Source: an uncultured Acidobacteriota bacterium (GTDB lineage Bacteria > Acidobacteriota > Thermoanaerobaculia > Thermoanaerobaculales > Sulfomarinibacteraceae). From it: a stretch of 64,000 nt of DNA. Numbering within the stretch: the stretch's first letter is position 1; each line of letters begins with the position of its first letter. Below the pieces are notes generated by a model that was not told the DNA's origin, searched no databases, and saw only the letters and a list, made by a program, of their open reading frames with translations. The translations under genes and the position numbers were made by a program. The stretch lies in NCBI GenBank assembly GCA_963823445.1, contig CAWGLT010000015.1, positions 70,520-134,519 on the forward strand, in the 5' to 3' direction. This document shows, piece by piece, positions 697-47,187 of the stretch.

Positions 697-2240
697 GCAA
701 CCACCTTGGTTATGGCGTCGACCACCGCCGGGTCGAATTGATGGCCGGCCGCACGCTTGAGGATCGCCAGGGCCCGTTCCTGGCTCACCGCCGGACGGTA
801 GCTGTTGGCCGCGGTGAAGAGATCGAAGACCTCAGCCACGTGGACGATGCGTGCGAGAACGGGAATCGCGGTGTTCGCCAACCGGTCGGGGTAGCCGTTT
901 CCGTCCCACCTTTCGTGATGGTGACGCACGGCGTCGGCGATCTCGTCGAAGCCTTCGACCCGGACGATACGGTCGCCGACCTCGACGTGCATGCGGTACG
1001 TGCGGCGATCCTCCGGGCCCGGCGTCGGATGCATATAAAGCCGATCGTAGTCGAGTTCCCGCATGCCGACATCGTGCAGCAGACCGGCCAGGGCCGCATG
1101 TTCCGTGGCGGTCTCGTCGAACTCGAGCACCCGGGCGATGGACCAGCACAGACGCGAGACGCCGAGGGAATGCGCGACGAGTTCCGGATAGCGGCGGTCG
1201 CCGGGTTGCAGCAGCCGCCGGGCGAGCCCGCGTCGGGCAATGCGAAGACAGAATCGTTCCCTCGCCTCGGCGACCTGGGTCCCGAGCCGCTCGACGGCCT
1301 CCCTGGCCACCGCCGGCTCGGCGTCGGCGATGACCGATGCCACCAGGCAGCTGCCGGCGACCCGCAGCAGGACCGCAGACCCGATCACCGGACTCCGGAA
1401 CGAGCCGGCGGGTCCAGCCGTGCGGCGGATCTCGGTCTTCCACGCTTTCGGCGGCGGCGGTGAAACCGACTTCTCGGTCATGGCGTCTATTTGATGCTTG
1501 ATGAGTGGATCAAGCTCGATGCCCGGGGAACCGGCGCGCTGGTGAACCAGGATGGCGGCGGCGGCCGGACTCGCGATACTCAAAGCGATCGCCAGCACGC
1601 GGGGATCGGCGAGCCCGTCTGCGGCGGCGGTGTTGATTTCGTCAAACCCCGGTTCGTCAAGGAGCGCCTCGGACCCATCGCCGGAATCGGCCGGGAGTTC
1701 GACCACCTTCGGCGCCGCCACGACGGTTCCCTCGACCCGGGGCTCTTTTGCGGATTCGTCGGGCGCGGTGTCTCTGATCAACCGGGTCAGACCGACCGCG
1801 ATCGACCGGGAGAGCTCGAGATCGCCGGCAACAAAGGGGCGCTGGCCACCTTTGTCCCGAACATCGATAAAGCCGACCTGGTCGGTTCCGTCGATGACCG
1901 GAACCAGCATCAACCGGGTGGTCCCAGCATCGGCGAGGTAGCCGGCGAGTTCACCGACCTCGTTGAGATCGTTGTAGAACCTGGGGTCCTCTCCGAACGC
2001 GCGCACCATACGTACGAGGGGGTGATCATCGGCAAAGGACTCCGACAACCGATCTCGACGGCCAAAACCGTACTGCGTCGCGAGAGACCAACCCCCGCTC
2101 GACGACTTCAGGTAGAGCGCGGCCTTGGTGGCGTGGACATCCCCCATGAAGCGATACAAGACCTCTTTGAAGGCCCGTTCGGTATCTGGAGTCCAGGGTG
2201 GATGCTGCGCCGTCATGACCTCTCCTCGGTCGGTTTCCAA
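693..2240 (-). CDS. GAF-like sensor / HD-GYP-type metal-dependent phosphohydrolase
   Basis: 515-aa ORF. The C-terminal half carries HD (LLHDVGM) and HHERWDGNGYP motifs typical of HD-GYP domains. The start could instead be the second Met at 2216. Confidence 0.8.
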   Translation of the reverse strand: METDRGEVMTAQHPPWTPDTERAFKEVLYRFMGDVHATKAALYLKSSSGGWSLATQYGFGRRDRLSESFADDHPLVRMVRAFGEDPRFYNDLNEVGELAGYLADAGTTRLMLVPVIDGTDQVGFIDVRDKGGQRPFVAGDLELSRSIAVGLTRLIRDTAPDESAKEPRVEGTVVAAPKVVELPADSGDGSEALLDEPGFDEINTAAADGLADPRVLAIALSIASPAAAAILVHQRAGSPGIELDPLIKHQIDAMTEKSVSPPPPKAWKTEIRRTAGPAGSFRSPVIGSAVLLRVAGSCLVASVIADAEPAVAREAVERLGTQVAEARERFCLRIARRGLARRLLQPGDRRYPELVAHSLGVSRLCWSIARVLEFDETATEHAALAGLLHDVGMRELDYDRLYMHPTPGPEDRRTYRMHVEVGDRIVRVEGFDEIADAVRHHHERWDGNGYPDRLANTAIPVLARIVHVAEVFDLFTAANSYRPAVSQERALAILKRAAGHQFDPAVVDAITKVVA

Positions 2241-5031: not shown

Positions 5032-7323
5032 ATGTCATATCCAGGCAACTCTGGGCTTTCCGTCCAAGCGCAAGAACGGGTCATGACGGCCTTCAAACAG
5101 GTGCTCAAGAACCTCCAAGCGGGACAACGCGAGGAGGCGACGATCGGCCTCGAATTCGTCCTTCGACTCGATCCGAAGTTCAAACCGGCCGTCAGCCTGA
5201 AACGCCAGGTCGCGTCGAGCTCCAATGAAATCGATCTTGGCGACATCATCGCCCAACTCCAGGCGCCGACCACCGAGACCATCAACGGTCTGCTCATCGA
5301 AGCGGTGGATGACTTCAACTCGAGAGAATTCCTCGGTGCGAAGGAAAAGGTCGAGAAGGTCCTCATCGATCTCCCCGGGCACCAAGAGGCCCGCGATCTC
5401 AGAGACCAGATCGACCGGGCCCTCAAGATCGAGAGTCAGGTCGGCCAGTTCCTGATCCAGGCCCGGGAGGCTCTCGCCAAGGGCGACCCCCAGGAAGCCG
5501 CCAACTTCGTCATGATGGCGCAGGCGCTCGATCCCCACCACACCGGCATCGCCTCGACGCTCAAGGAGATCGACGAGACCGGCGGGCTCGCCCTGTCCCA
5601 GAGCGCCGCCGCCGAATCGAACGCAGCCTCGCAGGAGCGCGCGGTCCCGCCCTCACGGCCGGCCACCAAGGGGGCAAAATCGGAGCCCGTCTCGGTTTCG
5701 GACGCGTTCGATCCCGGCATGCCGGACCCGCTCCCTGACAACCAGCTCGGTTCCCCCCTCGAGGACGCGTTCGCCGTTGAATTCGATACCCAGGATCCGT
5801 TTGCCGATCTCATGGCTTCGGAGCCGGATTCGGCGATGCCGGACCCCCGGCCGGTTCCCGCCTTCGGTGACGGCAGCGGCGATGACCTGTCGTTCCCACC
5901 CGTGGACGACACCGCGGATCTCTTCTCGGCGCCACCGGGGTCCTTCGCCGCGGGAGGCCCAAGTGGTGCCGCCACCCACGGCGAAGACTCCGGGTTTGCC
6001 GACATGAGGAACGCCGATGAGGATTCCATCGCGTCCTCCATTCAGGAGCTCATCACGCGCGGGCAGGAGGCGTACGACCAGAAAGACCAACCGCTGGCGA
6101 TCTCCCTCTGGTCGCGGGTGTTTCTTCTCAAACCGACCCACCCCGAGGCCGGGCACTTGATCGAACGGGCGAAAAAGTCTCTCGCTGAAACCGAAAACCA
6201 GATCGAATCGCTCTTCGGCAAGGCTCGAGACGCATTTGATGAAGGCGAGCACGATGCCGCCAGGTTGCTCGTCACCAAGGCTCTCGCGCTCCGTCCGAAC
6301 CACCTCGAAGTCAACCTCCTCAAAGAACAACTGGATCGCGAACAGGGGGTTTCTTCGGCCCAACCGCGGGCTGCGGAGAAGCCGGCGCGACGCGTCGAAG
6401 ATGCACCGGCGGCGGCGCCCGAACTCCCCGATCTCGATGACGACCTTTTTGCTGATCTCCCGTCGGCGTCGGACGCCGATGCGGAGCCCGAGGATCTCGA
6501 AGACGACCTCTTCAGCGATCACGACGACGATTTCGCCGATTTTGAAGAGCTCTCGCTCGTCGAACGCATTCGCAGCAAGATCTCCCTGCGGATGGTGGCC
6601 ATCGCGGGGCTTGCGGTGGTCGTCGTTCTCGCCGGGGTCTGGCTCGGCGGGAAGTTCCTCACGACCGAGCCTGCGGAGGTGGACGATTCGGCGGCTGTGA
6701 ACGCAGTCTTGAAAGAGGCCGATCGTCTCTACTCGGAACACAAAGTCGAGGAGGCGCTCCATCTGCTCCGGGAGTTTCCTGCTTCGGGCCTTTCCAAACA
6801 GCGGATCGACATGAAGATCTCCAAGTACGAGGTGAGTCTCGCTCCTCCGACCCCCACTCCGGTGCCCGAGGATGCCTCGCGCGCCCAAGCGTTGGTCGAT
6901 CAAGGTCTCTGGTGGTCGGCCTACATGGCCGCGACCGACGGGCTTGCAGCTTATCCCGACGACTCGGGATTGATGGAGATCCAACAGTCGATCATCGAGT
7001 CCGAGCCCGAGGCGCCGATCCTCCACAATGCGCTGAAGACCCGCGACTTTCGAACCGCCGTCAGCATCAGCGAAGATCTCCTCCTGCAGTACCCCGGACA
7101 GGGTGACATCATGGTGGCCCTCGAGCGGAGCCTCTTCAACGCGGCTCTCGCCGAATCACGAGCCTACAACCTCACCGGCGCGGAGAATCACCTGACTCGG
7201 CTCCTCGAACTCAAACCCGAAGACGAGGAAGCCATCCGTTTCCTCGAGTTTGTCCAGAAATACAAGGTTCGAGCGGCCGACATGCGCCTCGAGATCTTTA
7301 TCCGAAGCTTGAACGAACGATAA
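5032..7323 (+). CDS. TPR-repeat protein with an acidic/proline-rich linker and one TM segment
   Basis: 763-aa ORF. TPR-like helical repeats lie at both ends, with a long D/E/P-rich low-complexity centre and a hydrophobic stretch (VAIAGLAVVVVLAGVWLGG). Confidence 0.7.
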   Translation: MSYPGNSGLSVQAQERVMTAFKQVLKNLQAGQREEATIGLEFVLRLDPKFKPAVSLKRQVASSSNEIDLGDIIAQLQAPTTETINGLLIEAVDDFNSREFLGAKEKVEKVLIDLPGHQEARDLRDQIDRALKIESQVGQFLIQAREALAKGDPQEAANFVMMAQALDPHHTGIASTLKEIDETGGLALSQSAAAESNAASQERAVPPSRPATKGAKSEPVSVSDAFDPGMPDPLPDNQLGSPLEDAFAVEFDTQDPFADLMASEPDSAMPDPRPVPAFGDGSGDDLSFPPVDDTADLFSAPPGSFAAGGPSGAATHGEDSGFADMRNADEDSIASSIQELITRGQEAYDQKDQPLAISLWSRVFLLKPTHPEAGHLIERAKKSLAETENQIESLFGKARDAFDEGEHDAARLLVTKALALRPNHLEVNLLKEQLDREQGVSSAQPRAAEKPARRVEDAPAAAPELPDLDDDLFADLPSASDADAEPEDLEDDLFSDHDDDFADFEELSLVERIRSKISLRMVAIAGLAVVVVLAGVWLGGKFLTTEPAEVDDSAAVNAVLKEADRLYSEHKVEEALHLLREFPASGLSKQRIDMKISKYEVSLAPPTPTPVPEDASRAQALVDQGLWWSAYMAATDGLAAYPDDSGLMEIQQSIIESEPEAPILHNALKTRDFRTAVSISEDLLLQYPGQGDIMVALERSLFNAALAESRAYNLTGAENHLTRLLELKPEDEEAIRFLEFVQKYKVRAADMRLEIFIRSLNER

Positions 7324-33285: not shown

Positions 33286-33665
33286 TGGTGCGTTCAGCAG
33301 AAACGCTCAATGGATTCGTCGACTCGGGTTGCACCATCAAGGGCGAGCTCGAATTTTCGAATTCCTTTCGGGTCGATGGTCTGGTGGAAGGCACGGTTCG
33401 TTCGCGATCCGAGCTCGTCATCGGTGAGGACGGGACCGTCGACGGTGAAATCGACGTCGCCCGCTGTCTTGTCGGCGGCCAGGTCCGGGGAACGATCAAG
33501 GCCAGCGAGAAGGTCGTTCTGCACGCCTCGGCCAAGGTCTTCGGCGAAATCCACGCACCCGCGGTGGTCATGGAGGATGGCGCCTTCCTCGAGGGCAAGG
33601 TCGACATGGCGGCCCGAGCCAAGAAGGCAACACCGCCGGCGAAGGGCGAAGGCGCCAAGGGTTGA
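33285..33665 (+). CDS. bactofilin family cytoskeletal protein
   Basis: About 126 aa with repetitive beta-helix windings (V.G.V....L.IG..G.V.G.I). The ATG overlaps the parB TGA (TGATG). Confidence 0.85.
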   Translation: MVRSAETLNGFVDSGCTIKGELEFSNSFRVDGLVEGTVRSRSELVIGEDGTVDGEIDVARCLVGGQVRGTIKASEKVVLHASAKVFGEIHAPAVVMEDGAFLEGKVDMAARAKKATPPAKGEGAKG

Positions 33666-33720
33666 GAGCAAGGCTGCTGGTCGACGCTGCCGCTGAATCC
33701 TGTCGCTGCCCCGGAACCTG

Positions 33721-33980
33721 CCCTCATCGCCGGCCTTCTGGGCCGCTGTGACGCATTGGCGTCCCGGCGGCCCAGCGTCGCACCATCGGCGTGGTCGCGC
33801 GTGGGTTGATTGAGAGGCTCGGACCACGCCGATGGCGCGCCGGCGGCCTGCCTCGTAGCCGGGAGAGCAGACCGCATCGCGCTCCCCGCGGGAGCCCGGT
33901 CGGCATTTGTGCTGGGCGGGCCGCTCCGCCGAGAGGTCGTTCCGGCACAAATGCGGACCCGGCACCCCGTTGGGGCGGGG
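33721..33980 (+). repeat. structured repeat, full copy A1 (about 250 nt; tail to hairpin orientation arbitrarily called +)
   Basis: Hand alignment of its reverse complement to 40516-40766 gives about 26 mismatches in about 250 nt. It contains the hairpin GCATTTGTGC (33903) / GCACAAATGC (33945). Confidence 0.8.
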
Positions 33981-34060
33981 TTTTTCGGGTTTCCTTGACG
34001 CGCATTGTCTTCGTGCCTCGAGTGAACGCGGTATTGGCCTCGAACGGACGTGCCGTCTCA

Positions 34061-34199
34061 AACCGATTTTGGGATGGCGTACCGTCCCGGAGCGTGACGC
34101 GTTTCGGGCCCAAACATCGTTTGAGGGGGCACTCTCGGGGAGCGCGATGGGAGAATCTCGTTGGAGGCGCGTGCCGGAAGCGGTCCGCCGTGATTGGTT
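34061..34199 (-). repeat. structured repeat, degenerate truncated copy A2 (hairpin module plus CTCGGGGAGCGCGATG)
   Basis: Hairpin arms CGATTTTGGG (34064) / CCCAAACATCG (34109) around a 35-nt loop containing CGGAGCG, followed by CTCGGGGAGCGCGATG as in copy B2. Confidence 0.5.
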
Positions 34200-34262
34200 C
34201 CCTCATCGCCGGCCTTCTGCGCTACCGTGGCCCTCGATGCCGGAACCCGCACCGGCGATGGG
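34200..34262 (+). repeat. structured repeat, tail fragment A3
   Basis: CCCTCATCGCCGGCCTTCTG is identical to the first 20 nt of A1, followed by a diverged continuation. Confidence 0.5.
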
Positions 34263-34364
34263 ACACTTCTATCCTGCATCCTGATCCACGGTCTCTGTAT
34301 CACGCGATTCGCCTCCAGATTCGGCGCCAAACCCAAAGAAAACCGTCCTTGTGAAAAAAAAATC

Positions 34365-34394
34365 TTGACTCTTTGCGAAATCCTGCGGTAATTT
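34365..34394 (+). promoter_or_regulatory. putative sigma70-type promoter of the atp operon
   Basis: A-tract (GTGAAAAAAAAATC), then TTGACT, 18-nt spacer, TAATTT, about 47 nt upstream of the atpF' ATG. Confidence 0.5.
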
Positions 34395-34440
34395 GAGTCG
34401 CCCTGCAAAGAGGCGGGAGTGCCAAGGCCAGGAGCCGCGG

Positions 34441-34872
34441 ATGCAACCTCCGAATTTATCGCTGATCATCGTCATGGTGTGTTTCTGGTTGACCTTTTGG
34501 TTGATCCAGAGATTCCTCCTCAAACCGGTCGGTGCCGTACTCGCCGAACGCCGTGGTCGGATCGAGGGTGCCGAGAAAGAGTGGCAGTCGAAACACCAGG
34601 AATATCTGGCTGAGACGGCTCGCCTCGAAACCGAACTCGGAGAAGCCGCGAAGGCGGCGGCCGCGGTTCGCAACGGGCTCCAGCAGGAGGCCCTCGATCG
34701 GCGCCAGGCAACCCTCGACGCGGCCCGCCAGATCGCCGACGGCAGGCTCGATGAAGCCATGGCGGTGCTCGACAACGAGGCCGCCAAAGCGCGCGCCGAT
34801 CTCAAGGCTCAGGCAGGTGAACTCGCTCGGGCTTTTGCGAGCCAGCTCCTCGGCAGGGAGGTTTCCCGGTGA
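34441..34872 (+). CDS. atpF: F0F1 ATP synthase subunit b' (second b-type stalk subunit)
   Basis: Start at the ATG giving MQPPNLSLIIVMV, with AGGAG upstream. One N-terminal TM helix plus a long charged A/E/R-rich helix. First gene of the operon. Confidence 0.75.
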   Translation: MQPPNLSLIIVMVCFWLTFWLIQRFLLKPVGAVLAERRGRIEGAEKEWQSKHQEYLAETARLETELGEAAKAAAAVRNGLQQEALDRRQATLDAARQIADGRLDEAMAVLDNEAAKARADLKAQAGELARAFASQLLGREVSR

Positions 34873-35447
34873 AGGACAAGCTCTTCTGGGTTCTGGCCTT
34901 TGTTGTCTTCTTGGTTTTGGCCTTCCTCGTCGACGAGCCGCGACAACCTTCGTTTCTCCCCAGCGCTGCGATTCGGGTCCTTCTCGCAGCCAACCTCACG
35001 CTCTTCCTCTTTCTCCTGAACAAATTTGTCGGCCAACCCGTCAACGAGACCCTCAAGGCTCGCGGTGAGGGCGTCAAGGAGGAGCTTGCCGAGGCCCGCA
35101 GGAAGCTCGCCGAGGCAGAGACCCTTCGCTCGGAAGTCAGCGAACGCCTCGCCAGGGTCGAAGCGGAAGTCAAGGAGATTCAAGAACGGGCGGAAGCTCT
35201 CGGCAAGACCGAAGCGGAAAAGATCGACGCCCAGGCTCGCGAAGACGAAGCGAGATTCATGCGCCGCGTCGATGATCAGATTGCTCGCCGTCAGGCCGAA
35301 ACCCGCGAGCAGCTCGCGAAGGACACCGCGGCGTTGACCGAGCAGCTGACCAAAGAACTCCTGCAGGCGACCATGACCGAGAAAGACCAGCAGCGGGTGC
35401 TCGACCGCAGTCTCGGCGCCCTCGAAAACCTCGCGGATAAGGAGTGA
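34869..35447 (+). CDS. atpF: F0F1 ATP synthase subunit b
   Basis: 192 aa. GTGA overlap with the previous gene. TM segment plus an extended coiled helix. Confidence 0.8.
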   Translation: MKDKLFWVLAFVVFLVLAFLVDEPRQPSFLPSAAIRVLLAANLTLFLFLLNKFVGQPVNETLKARGEGVKEELAEARRKLAEAETLRSEVSERLARVEAEVKEIQERAEALGKTEAEKIDAQAREDEARFMRRVDDQIARRQAETREQLAKDTAALTEQLTKELLQATMTEKDQQRVLDRSLGALENLADKE

Positions 35448-35449
35448 CC

Positions 35450-36001
35450 ATGTCTCGATTCAGAGCCATGCCCTACGCGAAGGCGCTCCTCGAAGTGGTT
35501 CGGGACCAGTGTCCGGAGCGAAAAGAGGCCGTGATCGACGAGCTCAACGGGGTTGCGACAGCCCTCAAGGAGGTGCCCGATTTCGAGCGCGTGCTCGTCA
35601 CGCCCATGGTCGACACCGACACCAAGACCGTCATCCTCGACCAGGTCCTCGACAATCTCGGGATCACCCAACCGGTCCGCCGTTTCTGCCATGTTGTCCA
35701 GCGCCACTATCGCATGCTGCACATGCGCGACATCGCCATTACCTATCGGGACCTGGTCGACCGCGAATTCGGTCGCGCCCGGGCCCATGTCGAGCTTGCC
35801 ACGGCCTATGACGAGGCTGACCGTCGTCGGATCGCCGAGGTCATGAGCGCCGTGACGGGGACCGCCGTGGTCGCCGATTTCGTCCACAACCCGGAGCTTC
35901 TCGCCGGCTTCAAGGTCCAGGTTGGTTCCAAGGTCTTCGACGGGTCGCTCGTCGGACAGGTGAATCGGCTGAGCCGGCAAACCGTCATCGAACAGGGGTA
36001 G
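35450..36001 (+). CDS. atpH: F0F1 ATP synthase subunit delta (OSCP)
   Basis: Starts [22 protein letters not shown] lies about 5 nt upstream. A GTG at 35444 is an alternative start. Confidence 0.85.
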
Positions 36002-36005
36002 CAAT

Positions 36006-37530
<1,525 letters not shown>

Positions 37531-37544
<14 letters not shown>

Positions 37545-38394
37545 GGATCTCACCCGTCGAATCCGCTCCGTCAAGGGCACCCAGCAGATCACCAAGGCCA
37601 TGAAGATGGTGGCTGCGGCCAAGCTGCGGCGTGCGCAGCAGGCGGTGACCAACGCCCGGCCCTACGCCGACACGTTGTCGAAGGTGCTGGCCAACGTCGC
37701 GGCCAGGACCGAGGAGAGCCACCCGTTGCTCGAACGTCGTGAAGGTGGCCAAACCTGGTTGGTGGTCGTTTCGTCCGACAAGGGTCTGTGCGGTTCCTTC
37801 AATGCCAACCTCCTCCGCCAGATCGAGAAGGATCTCAAAAAGAAGCGGTGGCCCGATGTCGAGCTGATCCTCATCGGTCGCAAGGCCTCGGACTATTTCA
37901 AGGTCCGCGAGTTCCCGGTTGCCCACCAGGAGCGGGACACCATGAACCGTCTCACCGCTGCGGATGGGCCGCGGCTCGGTTCCATGTTCATGGAAGCCTT
38001 CACGTCGGGACAGGTCGACGAGGTGTGGATCGCGTACAACAAGTTCGTCAGTGTTCTCCGGCAGGAGATCACCATCGAGCAGTTGCTGCCCATCCAGCCA
38101 CCCGAAGCCGACCCGAACGCCGACGATGCAGGGACCGACTATCTTTACGAGCCCAACGCGGAGGGTTTACTGGCTGCATTGCTGCCGGCCTATGTCGAGA
38201 CCGAGATCCAGACGGTGCTCTACGACTCGGCCGCGGCCGAGCAGGCATCCCGGATGACCTCCATGGGGGCCGCCACCAAGAACGCCGGCGAGATGATCGA
38301 CGCCCTGACGATGCTCTACAACCGCACCCGCCAGGCCGCCATCACCAAGGAGTTGATCGAGATTGTTTCCGGCGCGCAAGCGCTCGGTGACTGA
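37531..38394 (+). CDS. atpG: F0F1 ATP synthase subunit gamma
   Basis: TTG start with GGAGG upstream. N-terminus [35 protein letters not shown]. Confidence 0.9.
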
Positions 38395-38398
38395 CTAG

Positions 38399-39853
<1,455 letters not shown>

Positions 39854-39854
39854 G

Positions 39855-40265
39855 ATGGCCAACCGGCTGCACCTCGAAATCGTGACTCCAAGCCGCCGAG
39901 TGGTGGAAGTGGCGGTCGACGAGGTGCGTCTCCCGGGCGCCCTCGGAGAGATGGGTGTTCTGCCCGGCCATATCCCGCTTCTGACCTCTCTCGCCGCCGG
40001 TCCGCTGACCTATTTCGACGGTTCCAAGGTGGTCCGGTACGCGGTCCAGGGCGGTTTTGCCGAGGTTCTTCCCGATCGGGTGACGGTTCTGGCCACGGTC
40101 GCCAAGGCGCCGGCCGACATCGATGTCGCCGCCGCAAGGAGCAATCTCCAGGCTGCCCAGGAGAAGCTCAAGGACGCCGCCGCCGAGGAGCTCGATGAGC
40201 TGACCGTTGTGGTGCGGCTTGCCGAGACCGAGATCGAGGTTGGCGGTGGAGCGACGGTCCACTGA
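39855..40265 (+). CDS. atpC: F0F1 ATP synthase subunit epsilon
   Basis: 136 aa. LHLEIVTPSRRVVEVAVDEVRLPGALGEMGVLPGH is typical of epsilon. Confidence 0.9.
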   Translation: MANRLHLEIVTPSRRVVEVAVDEVRLPGALGEMGVLPGHIPLLTSLAAGPLTYFDGSKVVRYAVQGGFAEVLPDRVTVLATVAKAPADIDVAAARSNLQAAQEKLKDAAAEELDELTVVVRLAETEIEVGGGATVH

Positions 40266-40289
40266 TTTTCATTGCGAGACTGAAACACC

Positions 40290-40320
40290 AACGGCGCCCT
40301 TCAGGGCGCCGTTTGTTTCG
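40290..40320 (+). terminator. rho-independent terminator of the atp operon
   Basis: AACGGCGCCC-TTCA-GGGCGCCGTT followed by TGTTT. Confidence 0.7.
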
Positions 40321-40328
40321 AGGGAGAT

Positions 40329-40413
40329 CCCGCCCAACGGGGTGCCGGGTCCGCATTTGTGCCGGAACGACCTCTCGGCGGAGCGGCCCACTCAGCACAA
40401 ATGCCGACCGGGC
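40329..40413 (-). repeat. structured repeat, solo hairpin module B1
   Basis: About 85 nt, identical to the hairpin end of B2 apart from a 1-nt indel in the leading C-run. Hairpin arms at 40353 and 40395. Confidence 0.8.
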
Positions 40414-40515
40414 CAGCGGCAGGAACCAGCGACCGGGCCAGCATCAGAAACCAGCGATCAGCGACAGCAGCAGCATCCGGAACAGCAACCGAAGCCGCCC
40501 GGGACCCGCGGAATA

Positions 40516-40768
40516 CCCCGCCCCAACGGGGTGCCGGGTCCGCATTTGTGCCGGAACGACCTCTCGGCGGAGCGGCCCACTCAGCACAAATGCCGACCGG
40601 GCTCCCTCGGGGAGCGCGATGAGGTCTGTTGTTCCGGCTACGAGGCAGGCCGCCGGCGTGTCATCGGCGTGGTCGCAGCCCTCCCCGATTCCCCCGCGCG
40701 ACTACGCCGATGGCGCGACGCTGGGTCGCTGGGACGCCAAAGCGTCACAGCGGCCCAGAAGGCCGGTG
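40516..40768 (-). repeat. structured repeat, full copy B2 (inverted relative to A1)
   Basis: About 90% identical to the reverse complement of A1 by hand alignment. Hairpin arms at 40542 and 40584. Confidence 0.8.
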
Positions 40769-40944
40769 CCGAGAACAAGGTCCGGAACAACAGCAGCGAC
40801 GGGGAAAGGGGCCGTATCCGATCCGCGGGCGATAGAACTAACCCGCATCGTTACACCACCAAAGCCGGCAGGACGCCGGCGCTACGAACATCGCAACGCC
40901 CTTTGTCGCACTGCGGGAACGAGGGTCGGTCGCTCTACATGGTT

Positions 40945-41205
40945 CTTTCAGCTCCGGCCTTCTGGTGCGGTGGGTCGCTGGAGCGCCCCATCGCCCCAGC
41001 GTCGCCCGATCAGCGCGGTCGCGCGATGGGGGCCGGAGAGGGCTGCGACCACGCTGATCGAGCGCCGGCGGCCTACCTCGAAGCCGGGAGAACCGATTTG
41101 GAGCGCGCTCCCCGAGGGAGCCCGGTTGGACATTGTGCGGAGCGCGCCGAGTAGATTGGAGGTCGTTCCGGCACAATGTCGAACCCGGCACCCCGATGGG
41201 GCGCG
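40945..41205 (+). repeat. structured repeat, diverged full copy B3 (tail-to-tail with B2)
   Basis: Colinear with A1 but much more diverged, with conserved blocks CCGGCCTTCTGG, CCCAGCGTCGC, GGTCGCGCG, GCGCTCCCCG.GGGAGCCCGGT and GGTCGTTCCGGCACAA. Hairpin arms GACATTGTGC (41129) / GCACAATGTC (41171). Confidence 0.65.
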
Positions 41206-41264
41206 ATCTTTCGCGTGTCCTGTTGCGGCTTCAGCACGGGCACGGTATCGGCCGCGGCCACCGC

Positions 41265-42671
41265 TCACTGATACTCCGCGCCCAGGATGACGCTGACGAT
41301 GATGGCGCCGACGGCGGCCGGGGCGGCGAATCGAATGAGAAAACGCCAGACTCCATGGCTCCATCCCAGCGCCCCGTTCCCCTCCTCGAGCTCGTCCCGA
41401 CTTTCCTTGGCGGTGAGGATCCAGCCCGTGAAAAGGGCGATGAAGAGCCCGCCCACGGGGAGGAGCCAGTTGCTCGCCAGGTAGTCGAGGGTTCCGAAGA
41501 CTCCGGTTGTCGAACCCTTGCCAATGGGGTTGAACGCCGATAGGAACTTAACCCCCCCGACGCTGAGCGCCGACAGAATTCCGAAGAGCCAGATCGACAA
41601 GCCTGTGGTCACCGCGGCCCTGCGCCGAGGCCAGTCGAGTTCGTCGATGGCGTAGCTCGCCACCACCTCGAGCAGGCTGATCGTGCTGGTGAGGGCGGCA
41701 AACGAAACCAGGAGATAGAAGAGCCCACAGATCACGGCTCCACCGGGGAGCTTGAAGAAGAGCACCGGGATGGTGGTGAACAGGATGGTGGAGCTCTTGC
41801 TCACCTCGAAATCGAAGCTGAAGATGATGGAGAACATGATGACGCACGCCATGATGGCAATGAGGGTGTCGAGAACGCAGATGGTCAGGGCGGCGCGCGG
41901 GATCGAATCCTGGCGCCGCATGTAGCTGCCATAGGTCAGCATCGAACCGAGACCGACGCTGAGGGTGAAAAACGAGTGCCCGAGAGCCTCGAGCACCCCG
42001 GCCGCCGTGATCTCGGCGAAGTTGGGCCGGAACAGGAAGGCCAGGGCGCGGCCAAAACCGGGGGTGGTCATGGAATACGCGGCGAGGACGAGCAAAATGG
42101 CGAACAAGAGGGGCATCAGAAGCTTGGCGGCGCGTTCGATCCCCCTACCGATTCCGAAATAGACGACGGCGATGGTCAAGCCCATGAAGAGCGTGTGAAA
42201 CAGAATCTGGGCCCCCGGATCGGCGAGGAAGCCGGAAAAAAAGGCCTCGAGGTCTTCCGGGTGACCGGCAAGTTCACCGAGCGATCCCGAAAAGGCCAGC
42301 AGAATGTACCGCAGGGTCCAGCCGGCGATCATGCTGTAGTAGGAAAGGATGATGAAACCGGCCACGACGCCGAGGTAGCCGACACCCTTCCAGGCCCGGC
42401 CACCCGGCTTTCCGACGCTCAACAGGCCAAACGCCCCCACCGGATTCCGTCGGCTCCTGCGGCCGAGCAGGATCTCGGCTCCCAGGATCGGGGCACCGAC
42501 CACGGCGATGGCGGCGAGATAGACGAGGACGAACGCCCCGCCATCGTTCTCGAGGGTGATGTAGGGAAACTTCCAGAGGTTTCCGAGGCCGATGGCGCTG
42601 CCGGCGGCCGCCAGGACGAAACCCAATCGACCGGTCCATTGCGCTCGTGATGCTGCCATCGATCCCCCCAA
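41265..42671 (-). CDS. sodium-dependent transporter, neurotransmitter:sodium symporter (NSS/SNF) family
   Basis: 468 aa, polytopic, with the N-terminal signature GSAIGLGNLWKFPY. Confidence 0.85.
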   Translation of the reverse strand: MGGSMAASRAQWTGRLGFVLAAAGSAIGLGNLWKFPYITLENDGGAFVLVYLAAIAVVGAPILGAEILLGRRSRRNPVGAFGLLSVGKPGGRAWKGVGYLGVVAGFIILSYYSMIAGWTLRYILLAFSGSLGELAGHPEDLEAFFSGFLADPGAQILFHTLFMGLTIAVVYFGIGRGIERAAKLLMPLLFAILLVLAAYSMTTPGFGRALAFLFRPNFAEITAAGVLEALGHSFFTLSVGLGSMLTYGSYMRRQDSIPRAALTICVLDTLIAIMACVIMFSIIFSFDFEVSKSSTILFTTIPVLFFKLPGGAVICGLFYLLVSFAALTSTISLLEVVASYAIDELDWPRRRAAVTTGLSIWLFGILSALSVGGVKFLSAFNPIGKGSTTGVFGTLDYLASNWLLPVGGLFIALFTGWILTAKESRDELEEGNGALGWSHGVWRFLIRFAAPAAVGAIIVSVILGAEYQ

Positions 42672-46591: not shown

Positions 46592-46635
46592 CGGTCCCGC
46601 GACCGACGACTCCCGACTCCCGACTCCCGACTCCC
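46592..46635. repeat. left inverted repeat / GACTCCC heptamer array
   Basis: CGGTCCCGCGACCGACGACTCCC (46592-14) is the perfect reverse complement of 47165-47187. GACTCCC then occurs as 4 perfect tandem copies (46608-46635). Confidence 0.8.
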
Positions 46636-46669
46636 GTCCTCTCCCGGACTCCTCATCGAGTGTGACTCC

Positions 46670-47095: not shown

Positions 47096-47131
47096 TGGGG
47101 CATTGTAGACGCGACGGAGGTCGCGGGTCCT

Positions 47132-47187
47132 GAGTCGGGAATCGGGAGTCGGGGGTCGTGAATCGGGAGTCGTCGGTCGCGGGACCG
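47132..47187. repeat. right inverted repeat / GARTCGG heptamer array
   Basis: GAGTCGG GAATCGG GAGTCGG GGGTCGT GAATCGG GAGTCGT CGGTCGC, seven phased units. The last 23 nt are perfectly complementary to 46592-46614. Confidence 0.8.

Follow-up and report, generated by a model that had tools for sequence, protein, structure and literature searches.

A long hairpin recurs in this stretch of Acidobacteriota DNA with arms that differ from copy to copy, yet are paired in every one of them. Is it the fold rather than the sequence that is maintained, and to what kind of element would such a hairpin belong? We addressed these questions in the window, by which we mean the whole stretch of 64,000 nt that was analysed, and in related copies retrieved from other genomes.

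Five copies on either side of the ATP-synthase operon

The window holds five copies of the repeat, A1, A2, B1, B2 and B3, in two intergenic regions either side of the ATP-synthase (atp) operon at ~34393-40265 (Table 1). The earlier note had reported that three different arm sequences keep the same pairing, and this hairpin observation is confirmed: all the arm sequences quoted for A1, B1, B2, B3 and A2 are present where it placed them, among them GACATTGTGC at 41129-41138 of B3, which pairs with GCACAATGTC at 41171-41180. The loops have the length that it gave, 32-35 nt (32 nt in A1, B1/B2 and B3, ~35 nt in A2), and the outward extension of the stem with a shared mismatch is real, running through CCCGG/CCCGG with a fixed C.C mismatch. 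The CGGAGCG loop motif, which had also been put forward, is not family-wide; A1 and B3 carry it on opposite strands and at different places in the loop.

The hairpins of B1 and B2 are both the reverse complement of the A1 hairpin. B1 and B2 match each other perfectly over 81 nt, and A1 and B2 form a 179-nt inverted repeat with 91% complementarity. The covariance model described below matches the 3' domain of B3 over 41100-41228 with 124.7 bits, and the long hairpin of this copy has fold z-scores of -4.4 as RNA and -4.2 as DNA. A2 represents a second subfamily (type II) and is a genuine, though diverged, member of the family. In the blastn coverage profile, positions 33700-33995 are common to 125-140 loci among the matches listed. 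No ortholog of the window region was found among the retrieved loci, the matches consisting of the repeats alone. A low-complexity tract with a period of 6 nt lies ahead of A1 (~33680-33729). Module 'C' is a different repeat, which was compared by eye using the TRF consensus of locus L021 (2401-2647), the window sequence and the arrays of loci L038 and L090; it appears to be a component of the mosaic intergenic region.

Table 1. Positions of the repeat copies and their parts in the window.
Feature	Position	Strand	Details and basis
B3 long hairpin (HP4), the hairpin under study	41122-41188	+	CCGGT-TGGACATTGTGC, 32-nt loop, GCACAATGTCGA-ACCCGG; sequence
B3 full element	40954-41228	+	alignment with A1 and B2; regex coordinates
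B3 5' domain hairpins HP1, HP2	HP2 41007-41059	+	alignment with A1 and B2
B3 3' domain	HP3 41105-41121; HP4; HP5 41187-41203; small terminal hairpin	+	
A1 full element	33730-34002	+	blastn coverage profile; covariance model 33874-34002, 120.3 bits
A1 hairpins	HP3 33879-33895; HP4 33896-33962; HP5 33961-33977	+	HP4 arms GCATTTGTGC and GCACAAATGC
A2, type II subfamily	34014-34150	-	covariance model 25 bits, E=2.4e-5; type II alignment
A2 parts	HP3-like GCGCTCCCCGAGAGTGC 34129-34145; arms 34109-34124 and 34058-34073; GACGGCAC 34050-34057	-	arms CCGATTTTGGG and CCCAAACATCG, inside 34058-34124
B1, partial copy, 3' domain alone	40306-40424	-	HP4 40345-40411; covariance model 71.8 bits, HP3 missing
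B2 full element	40494-40766	-	covariance model 122.5 bits
B2 parts	HP5 40519-40535; HP4 40534-40600; HP3 40601-40617; 5' end CCGGCCTTCTGG 40755-40766	-	
Module 'C', different repeat	40825-40920	.	by-eye match to a 96-nt tandem unit beside element arrays in other genomes

Compensatory changes maintain the stem

Copies of the family were sought with an anchor of 21 nt just 5' of the hairpin, one genome per species being scanned. The anchor lies outside the hairpin, which was itself free to vary; it was chosen so as not to bias the test for covariation. At least 104 genomic stretches matched the anchor, almost all of them from metagenome-assembled genomes (MAGs) of Acidobacteriota and ~10 of them obvious chance matches. 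Three of the source MAGs are classified as 'uncultured Acidobacteriota', two belong to the Holophagae and one to Ca. Sulfomarinibacteraceae. From a structure-blind alignment of 126 copies we then built a covariance model, which was run on the retrieved DNA; together with the pattern scan it recovered at least ~165 copies in at least six genomes, with ~50 distinct arm pairs.

Covariation was measured in a structure-blind MAFFT alignment of 126 unique segments of 130 nt against two nulls, 500 shuffles and partners slid by 1-3 columns. The proportion of paired cells is 94.9%, compared with 83.4% in the shuffles and 21.8-51.4% with slid partners. Cells in which both sides have changed number 259, against 67±6 in the shuffles (0 of 500 reach 259) and at most 31 with slid partners, and the covariation score is 0.273 against 0.082 and at most 0.048, respectively. 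Both-side changes occur in 9 of the 14 hairpin pairs across the 126 copies. The three full copies of the window alone give a three-hairpin RNAalifold consensus with 8-9 double-changed pairs and consensus energies of -141 and -139 kcal/mol on the two strands. The 5' arms also pair far more stably with their own 3' arms, at -20.2±4.1 kcal/mol, than with those of other subfamilies, at -11.2±5.6 kcal/mol, and for 21 of 48 arms the cognate partner is the best of 29.

The larger alignment that the earlier note had proposed as a check thus shows covariation clearly above both the shuffled and the slid controls, and the outcome that was to refute its claim did not occur. The covariation over ~165 copies in at least six genomes shows that what is maintained is the fold and not the sequence, in line with the selection on secondary structure that had been suggested, and therefore that the copies do not reflect simple decay of a duplicated sequence. 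The latter point is further borne out by orthologous copies, which are more conserved than the genes that flank them (see below).

A modular element with several hairpins

The element is modular: a 3' domain of ~130 nt is often joined by a 5' domain of ~165 nt with two more hairpins, and the conserved core measures ~295 nt by blastn coverage. The 3' domain is able to stand alone, as it does in B1, in type II copies and in short-form dimers that repeat in tandem every 152 nt. Within it, HP4 (a stem of ~15 bp with a loop of ~32 nt) lies between two small conserved palindromes, HP3 (GCGCTCCCCG-N-GGGAGC, then CCGG) and HP5 (CACCCCG-NT-GGGGCG, after CCCGG), which are near mirror images facing each other across HP4. 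A T-run forms the loop of a small terminal hairpin, GCGG-(GG)TTTT-CCGC. The minimal unit is a quasi-palindrome of ~130 nt, and its minimum free energy (MFE) fold is one imperfect rod of ~45 bp with regularly spaced mismatches. This rod is predicted with RNA or DNA parameters, and folding in both orientations, as had been advised, gives the same long rod on either strand. The fold z-scores range from -1.4 to -4.4 in type I copies and from -0.3 to -2.4 for A2.

HP4 has constant outer and inner parts, CCCGG(T/C) and (A/T)TTGTGC/GCACAA(A/T), separated by 7-8 bp that are hypervariable (entropy 0.6-1.8 bits) but remain paired. The stems of HP1 and HP2 in the 5' domain, unlike this variable segment, are ~97% constant. 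Stem position 4-5 of HP4 is irregular in nearly every arm type, with a bulged G, A.A, G.G or G.A, the window copies having G.G. The loop keeps a 3'-side motif, GCCGG..GGTCG(T/A)TCC, and this motif and the flanks are conserved from one class of Acidobacteriota to another; for the 32-nt loop itself RNAalifold returned no consensus structure on either strand.

Besides A2 there are ~20 further type II copies, with the architecture GCGCTCCCCG.GG.TGCCCCC - TTAGACAATGTTGGG ... CCCAACATTGTCAAAG - ACGGCAC; their stems covary likewise and share the position-4 mismatch with type I. The subfamilies are distinguished by the 7-8 bp at the base of the stem, where pairing is always kept. What follows the terminal hairpin is drawn from a small set of recurrent modules, namely period-6 low-complexity tracts, an array spacer of ~160 nt, a gene-leading spacer and the A2 module, the last of which is also present in seven other loci (L001, L012, L014, L016, L053, L062 and L066). 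The element-bearing intergenic regions can therefore be described as mosaics of recurrent modules joined after the terminal hairpin. A reading of the units as small ORFs was rejected, since a codon-usage gene finder calls none and array units differ by non-triplet indels.

Genomic placement and turnover

Among the matches listed, 139 of 150 copies lie between genes. Of these intergenic regions, convergent ones are over-represented (30, compared with 16 divergent), and between tandem gene pairs the orientation is random, 16 copies being co-oriented with the genes and 15 opposed. The copies are spread over at least 77 different intergenic regions, many of them as solitary elements. Arrays consist of 2-9 units, always in one orientation, with unit lengths of 152-916 nt; some are short-form 152-nt dimers, and some mix arm types or subfamilies. 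The sampled tiles of MFD03804.bin.1.249 contain at least 95 copies with 19 arm variants, those of MFD09779.bin.2.172 at least 24 copies and those of the Sulfomarinibacteraceae MAG at least 17. Six major arm types are common to three species-level genomes.

Orthologous intergenic regions of genomes that are ~87-90% identical differ in the number, subfamily and orientation of their elements, and part of this turnover is tandem expansion or contraction by whole units. Where the 3' domain is retained between orthologous regions, it is 94.0% identical (610/649), compared with 87.3% (3822/4380) for the mostly coding flanks. Viral contigs gave 0 matches to the anchor pattern, and as far as sequence matches tell, the element is not phage-borne. 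In the literature searched we found no published description of this repeat family, which is a previously undescribed family of high-copy, folded intergenic repeats of Acidobacteriota.

Strand and transcription signals

G.U pairs are not enriched in the element: the hairpin has 26 G.U against 64 A.C, and HP1/HP2 have 38 against 64. The wobble pairs of the hairpin (C.A 64 vs G.U 26) point to the complement strand, HP1 pair 24-43 points to the opposite strand (U.G 17 vs C.A 4) and pair 20-47 again has C.A 33. As helices and strands disagree, the strand call from wobble pairs was dropped. By MFE, 84 of 123 type I copies fold better on the aligned strand, whereas A2 does so on the complement. In several stem subfamilies a C.A on the aligned strand is a G.U on the sense strand of the neighbouring PF05635 gene described below. 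The lack of a G.U excess is atypical of RNA and leans towards an element acting at the DNA level.

At Rfam gathering thresholds the whole window yields three tRNAs and nothing else, and at E<=5 the region 33400-41500 yields two chance matches far below threshold. Known Rfam families, including Acido-1, HEARO, OLE, ROOL and ribozymes, were rejected, as no covariance-model score comes near the gathering threshold. No sigma-70-type promoter was detected in either the window regions or a nine-unit array (acidobacterial promoters may differ from that consensus), and the same sequences show no excess of terminator-like sites. The element was also rejected as an intrinsic terminator: the T-run is a hairpin loop and not a tail, there is no excess of sites, and the orientation is random. 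Taken together, the lack of a G.U excess, the random orientation, the lack of transcription signals, and the high copy number and turnover make us lean to a DNA-level element, of the two options, RNA and cruciform/ssDNA, that the earlier note had both allowed.

A PF05635 gene next to the element

Among 575 predicted neighbour proteins only one family recurs, a four-helix bundle of ~116 aa matching PF05635 (56.8 bits), the Avd-like '23S rRNA intervening sequence protein'. This is the family of the Avd protein of diversity-generating retroelements (DGRs), which works with their structured RNA, and of the ORF in the rRNA intervening sequences of Coxiella and Leptospira. Such intervening sequences have been called selfish, with their mode of spread not known (PMC4990558), and PF05635 genes are also found scattered or inserted in cas operons (PMC3936711).

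The PF05635 gene adjoins the element in 13 loci, always tail-to-tail with the element 3' end, at 5-21, 165 or 257 nt. A check that started from the protein agreed in 3 of 3 independent homologues on long contigs, the element lying 85-181 nt downstream on the opposite strand, which brings the adjacency to at least 16 places in all. The complement of the element is thereby always downstream of the gene in the same sense, 5-257 nt past its stop codon. In one orthologous pair of loci the PF05635 cassette is present in L089 and missing in L043, and it is inserted directly after the terminal hairpin. One genome has the succession of element(s), a 257-nt spacer, the PF05635 gene, a 150-nt palindrome and a (TCACGG)n microsatellite, the palindrome covering the ribosome-binding site of the gene. 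The idea that the arm type tracks the PF05635 paralogue was rejected, since near-identical paralogues adjoin different arm types. Most homologues of the linked gene are on contigs shorter than 2 kb, from which we infer that the element probably breaks short-read assemblies.

Search for a mobilising enzyme

The earlier note had suggested recognition by a protein such as a RAYT/HUH-type enzyme. RAYT-type Y1/HUH genes are usually single-copy and easily missed in a search confined to loci. We used tblastn with E. coli YafM and five acidobacterial TIRYT Y1 transposases and a scan for the HUH..Y motif, and no RAYT or IS200-like Y1/HUH gene was found in the sequences searched, namely the window, 108 loci (~870 kb) and ±4 kb of ~170 copies. 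A database search with the Acidobacterium TIRYT returned Terriglobia-like homologues only, none of them on contigs of the element-bearing MAGs. No kind of transposase recurs near the copies among the 575 neighbour proteins, and within the loci there is no tnpA-like ORF near any copy and no recurrent TnpB-size ORF among the neighbours. A tnpA or tnpB gene would be carried by the IS200/IS605 copy whose subterminal hairpins at both ends an IS200/IS605-derived PATE, or an omega-RNA/reRNA, should match. Overall, the interpretation of the earlier note is partly supported.

Comparison with known repeats

Where PMC3116915 and PMC3337134 describe the architecture of REPINs, these consist of two inverted small palindromes and a variable spacer that form a long hairpin, and Acidobacteria encode RAYT-like 'TIRYT' Y1 transposases with repeat families of their own (PMC3733652). 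The present element is likewise extragenic and of high copy number, with inverted small palindromes round a variable spacer and a long imperfect hairpin. It likewise shows compensatory pairing, occurs as singlets, dimers and clusters, and persists over related species. When compared with the REP/REPIN architecture, HP3 (GCTCCC-CGN-GGGAGC) and HP5 (CACCCC-GNT-GGGG) were found to flank HP4 extragenically in many copies. The unit differs from REPINs, however, in being larger and usually fused to the 165-nt 5' domain with its two hairpins, in its same-orientation tandem arrays, which outnumber head-to-head dimers, and in its link to PF05635, which is not a REPIN trait; no RAYT/TIRYT gene was found beside any copy. 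The definition of a REP includes an unpaired GTAG or CGTC tetranucleotide at one end (PMC3733652), whereas the present hairpin is flanked by GAGCCCGG and CCCGGCAC and lacks such a tag. The sole GTAG (CCTCGTAGCCGG, ~45 nt upstream) is moderately conserved and predicted to be paired. A GTAG/CGTC-tagged REP was rejected on account of the absence of this defining unpaired tag.

The BIMEs of E. coli and the NIMEs of Neisseria (dRS3/RS) are similar in being intergenic mosaics of a few modules joined at fixed points, with strain-variable copy numbers and one small palindrome. Their modules are unrelated in sequence to those described here, which are much longer and include a key module whose stem is hypervariable yet paired, and no binding factor (IHF, gyrase) or phage integrase is known for the present element. 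Structured MITEs (Correia/NEMIS, ERIC, RUP, BOX) share the abundance, the intergenic location, the length of 100-300 nt and the long hairpins, but the present element has several hairpins instead of a single stem driven by terminal inverted repeats (TIRs), and no IS-matching TIRs or target-site duplication were found. Its ends, CCGGCCTTCTGG and GTCGGCTTCGG, are closer to a direct than to an inverted repeat; no target-site duplication or empty site is recognisable, the flanks being period-6 tracts or other modules. The intervening sequences of 23S rRNA with an S23p/PF05635 ORF (Coxiella, Leptospira) also have a PF05635 gene, set within strongly self-complementary non-coding sequence. Here, in contrast, the site is intergenic and not helix 25 or 45 of 23S rRNA, the copies number dozens to hundreds, and the gene is not enclosed by a terminal stem but stands beside a separate hairpin repeat, which mostly lacks the gene. 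A 23S rRNA intervening sequence, which by definition is bounded by a terminal stem that RNase III cuts, was rejected, as the loci lie between ordinary protein genes with no rRNA nearby.

What kind of element is it?

The explanation that we favour, tentatively and with somewhat less than even confidence, is that the hairpin forms the cis-acting core of a REPIN/MITE-like family of non-coding, selfish or recombinogenic DNA repeats of Acidobacteriota, which is recognised as a folded single strand. While the DNA is single-stranded, either in replication or through extrusion of a cruciform, the rod would form and be recognised by a trans-acting protein, through its constant flanks, the TTGTGC/GCACAA box and the bulge. 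This protein would copy, move or recombine the element. If propagation were limited to lineages with complementary arms, the compensatory pattern would follow. By analogy with REPs, the leading candidate for the enzyme would be a single-copy Y1/HUH (RAYT/TIRYT-like) transposase. This REPIN-like reading is supported by the size of the family, the covariation, the intergenic turnover, the lack of promoter, terminator and Rfam signals, and the REPIN-like architecture. Against it stand the lack of a recurrent transposase, of a Y1/HUH gene in the window or the 108 loci, and of a GTAG/CGTC tag, TIRs, target-site duplications and an empty site. In addition, tandem expansion and contraction explain part of the turnover without transposition.

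The conservation of retained copies beyond that of neighbouring genes could instead mean a host function, for example as RNA, and a co-transcribed RNA would also fit the constant placement of the element, in position and orientation, next to the PF05635 gene. The element might then act on its own as a non-coding RNA, or within a UTR, for example as exonuclease barrier, processing site or protein-binding platform, and it may be the RNA partner of the PF05635 protein in the manner of Avd and the DGR RNA. A multi-hairpin architecture with covariation and single-stranded motifs that are kept while the stems vary are what such an RNA would show, and several subfamilies read G.U instead of C.A on the gene-sense strand. 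Strong conservation of single copies and the same-sense position downstream of the gene (in 13 loci and 3 of 3 protein-first places) keep an RNA role in play as the next most probable reading, but we consider it rather unlikely. There is no Rfam match, promoter-like or terminator-like signal, the orientation to flanking genes is random (16 vs 15), neither strand has a consistent G.U excess over A.C, and the MFE prefers different strands in type I and type II. A copy number of at least 95 per genome with fast turnover is also unusual for an RNA gene, and the arm type is independent of the PF05635 paralogue. A different possibility is that the covariation is a mutational by-product of template switching, intra-hairpin repair or gene conversion in neutral, satellite-like DNA spread by unequal recombination. 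Templated mutation is an established mechanism in bacterial quasi-palindromes, and arrays that grow and shrink by whole units, strands that fold equally well with an inconsistent wobble bias, and the very high identity of some copies, which fits gene conversion, all agree with it. Templating should erase mismatches, however, and nearly all arm types of both subfamilies have retained the irregularity at position 4-5 and the C.C mismatch, so that a purely mutational origin fits poorly. The unpaired loop motif and the flanks are, moreover, conserved across Acidobacteriota classes, the same arm types persist across species, and the spread over at least 77 intergenic regions goes beyond unequal recombination alone. 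We regard this origin as distinctly improbable.

The arrays also recall those of integron attC sites and CALINs, which are folded single-stranded DNA sites set by structure and extra-helical bases and lie in arrays of one orientation. On this account each unit, which sometimes includes a PF05635 gene, would form a cassette with a folded single-stranded site for a tyrosine recombinase at its end. Units of 152-916 nt in one-orientation arrays, varying stems with conserved bulges, the PF05635 cassette found right after the terminal hairpin in L089 and not in the orthologous L043, and the joining of different modules at one point after the hairpin would suit it. attC sites carry the core sites R'' (RYYYAAC) and R' (GTTRRRY) at the stem base, whereas the base of this stem reads CCCGG-T/C...A/G-CCCGG, without R''/R' cores. 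No IntI was found, and no integrase or recombinase occurs beside any array, among the recurrent neighbours or in the Pfam-annotated contexts. The supposed cassette content, between one hairpin and the next, consists of the one conserved 5' domain and not of diverse genes, and many copies are solitary. The element was rejected as an attC site, and an attC-like cassette system is very unlikely.

The hairpin repeat and the PF05635 gene could together form a two-part selfish system that was unrecognised before, in which the pentameric protein would bind the rod, as DNA or RNA, by its flanks and bulge. The hypervariable basal stem would serve as a specificity code separating co-resident lineages, and insertion of the cassette would take place at one fixed point, immediately 3' of the hairpin. 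We offer this proposal as a speculative and, on balance, unlikely one.

Implications

Acidobacteriota rank with the most abundant bacteria of soils, and very little of their repeat content has been charted. The family described here is a large class of repeats at dozens to hundreds of intergenic sites per genome. It provides an unusually clean natural experiment, in which one genome holds many paired versions of a stem beside invariant flanks and a conserved bulge. In practical terms, the element should be masked or modelled in screens of these genomes for non-coding RNAs and CRISPR arrays. More broadly, it offers a handle on what propagates REP-like elements in phyla without GTAG REPs, and on the function and spread of the widespread PF05635 'IVS protein' genes. 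The parts most worth pursuing are the link to PF05635 and the hypervariable, 'coded' stem. If the two-part system were true, it would provide a mechanism for the presence of PF05635 genes in 23S rRNA helices, in cas operons and at hundreds of intergenic sites.

A PF05635 gene adjoins the hairpin element

At numbered genomic stretches from other genomes (L numbers, mostly Acidobacteriota MAGs), the hairpin element lies tail-to-tail and at a fixed spacing with a gene of the PF05635 family, which encodes an Avd-like four-helix-bundle protein annotated as '23S rRNA IVS protein'. Comparison of an orthologous pair of loci, L043 and L089, shows a PF05635 cassette of ∼560 nt that is present in one genome and missing from the other, with the insertion point between the terminal hairpin and the tail of the element. 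Neither a duplication nor inverted ends were recognised for the cassette in this pair. We found 3077 homologues of the protein (E<=1e-10), the majority carried by contigs shorter than 2 kb.

The state of the gene differs among loci. The L064 copy is a pseudogene with a frameshift, whereas L038 has lost the gene by deletion and retains its flanks alone. A typical member of the hairpin family occurs in a MAG labelled Ilumatobacteraceae (Actinobacteriota), reflecting either misbinning of the contig or lateral transfer.

Positions of the hairpin element's neighbours and related features
Feature	Stretch	Positions	Basis
PF05635-adjoining loci	L002, L021, L022, L023, L025, L034, L037, L048, L064, L067, L074, L089, L105-L108		
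PF05635 gene, example	L074	6069-6416	
Palindrome over gene start	L074	6407-6570	
Orthologous pair, cassette present or missing	L043	1631-1900	
	L089	4503-5330	
Hairpin-family member, Ilumatobacteraceae MAG	L040	699-828	
96-nt module	window	40825-40920	
	L021	2401-2647	
	L038	6750-6920	
	L090	~1100-1700 (- strand)	
Period-6 tracts	L021	5147-5308	
	L074	~6570-6740	
	L097	5722-5790	
	window	33680-33729, 40414-40500	
Inverted hexamer pair (GACTCC)n / (GGAGTC)n	window	46592-46641 and 47117-47187	repeat search
Element ends, example	window	33730-33741 (5' end), ~33990-34000 (3' tail)	family consensus
Terminator-like hairpin	window	40287-40318	

Ends and borders of the element

The 5' end of the element (CCGGCCTTCTGG) is similar, in direct orientation, to its 3' tail (GTCGGCTTCGG); these ends could be att-like junctions, or else the likeness is a coincidence. 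Period-6 low-complexity tracts, among them (TCACGG)27, (TCGGGA)n and (NCGCTG)n, border both the hairpin elements and the PF05635 unit, and their length varies among paralogous copies. The two inverted hexamer repeats of the window, spaced ∼500 nt apart, may belong to the same class. Tandem arrays of two to six units of a separate 96-nt module, which has a palindrome of its own (GCGCTACAAAGGGCGCTGCGATGTTTGTAGCGCC), also adjoin hairpin elements.

Expression of the neighbouring genes

Upstream of the PF05635 gene in L074, a palindrome of ∼150 nt spans the gene start. Because the Shine-Dalgarno sequence and the ATG sit in one of its arms (GGAGGTGACCATG), the sequence suggests that translation initiation is sequestered inside a long hairpin. 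In the window, a canonical terminator-like hairpin (ACGGCGCCCTTCAGGGCGCCGTTTGTTT) directly follows the last atp gene and precedes B1, a partial copy of the element; judged from this placement, the repeats probably lie outside the atp transcript.
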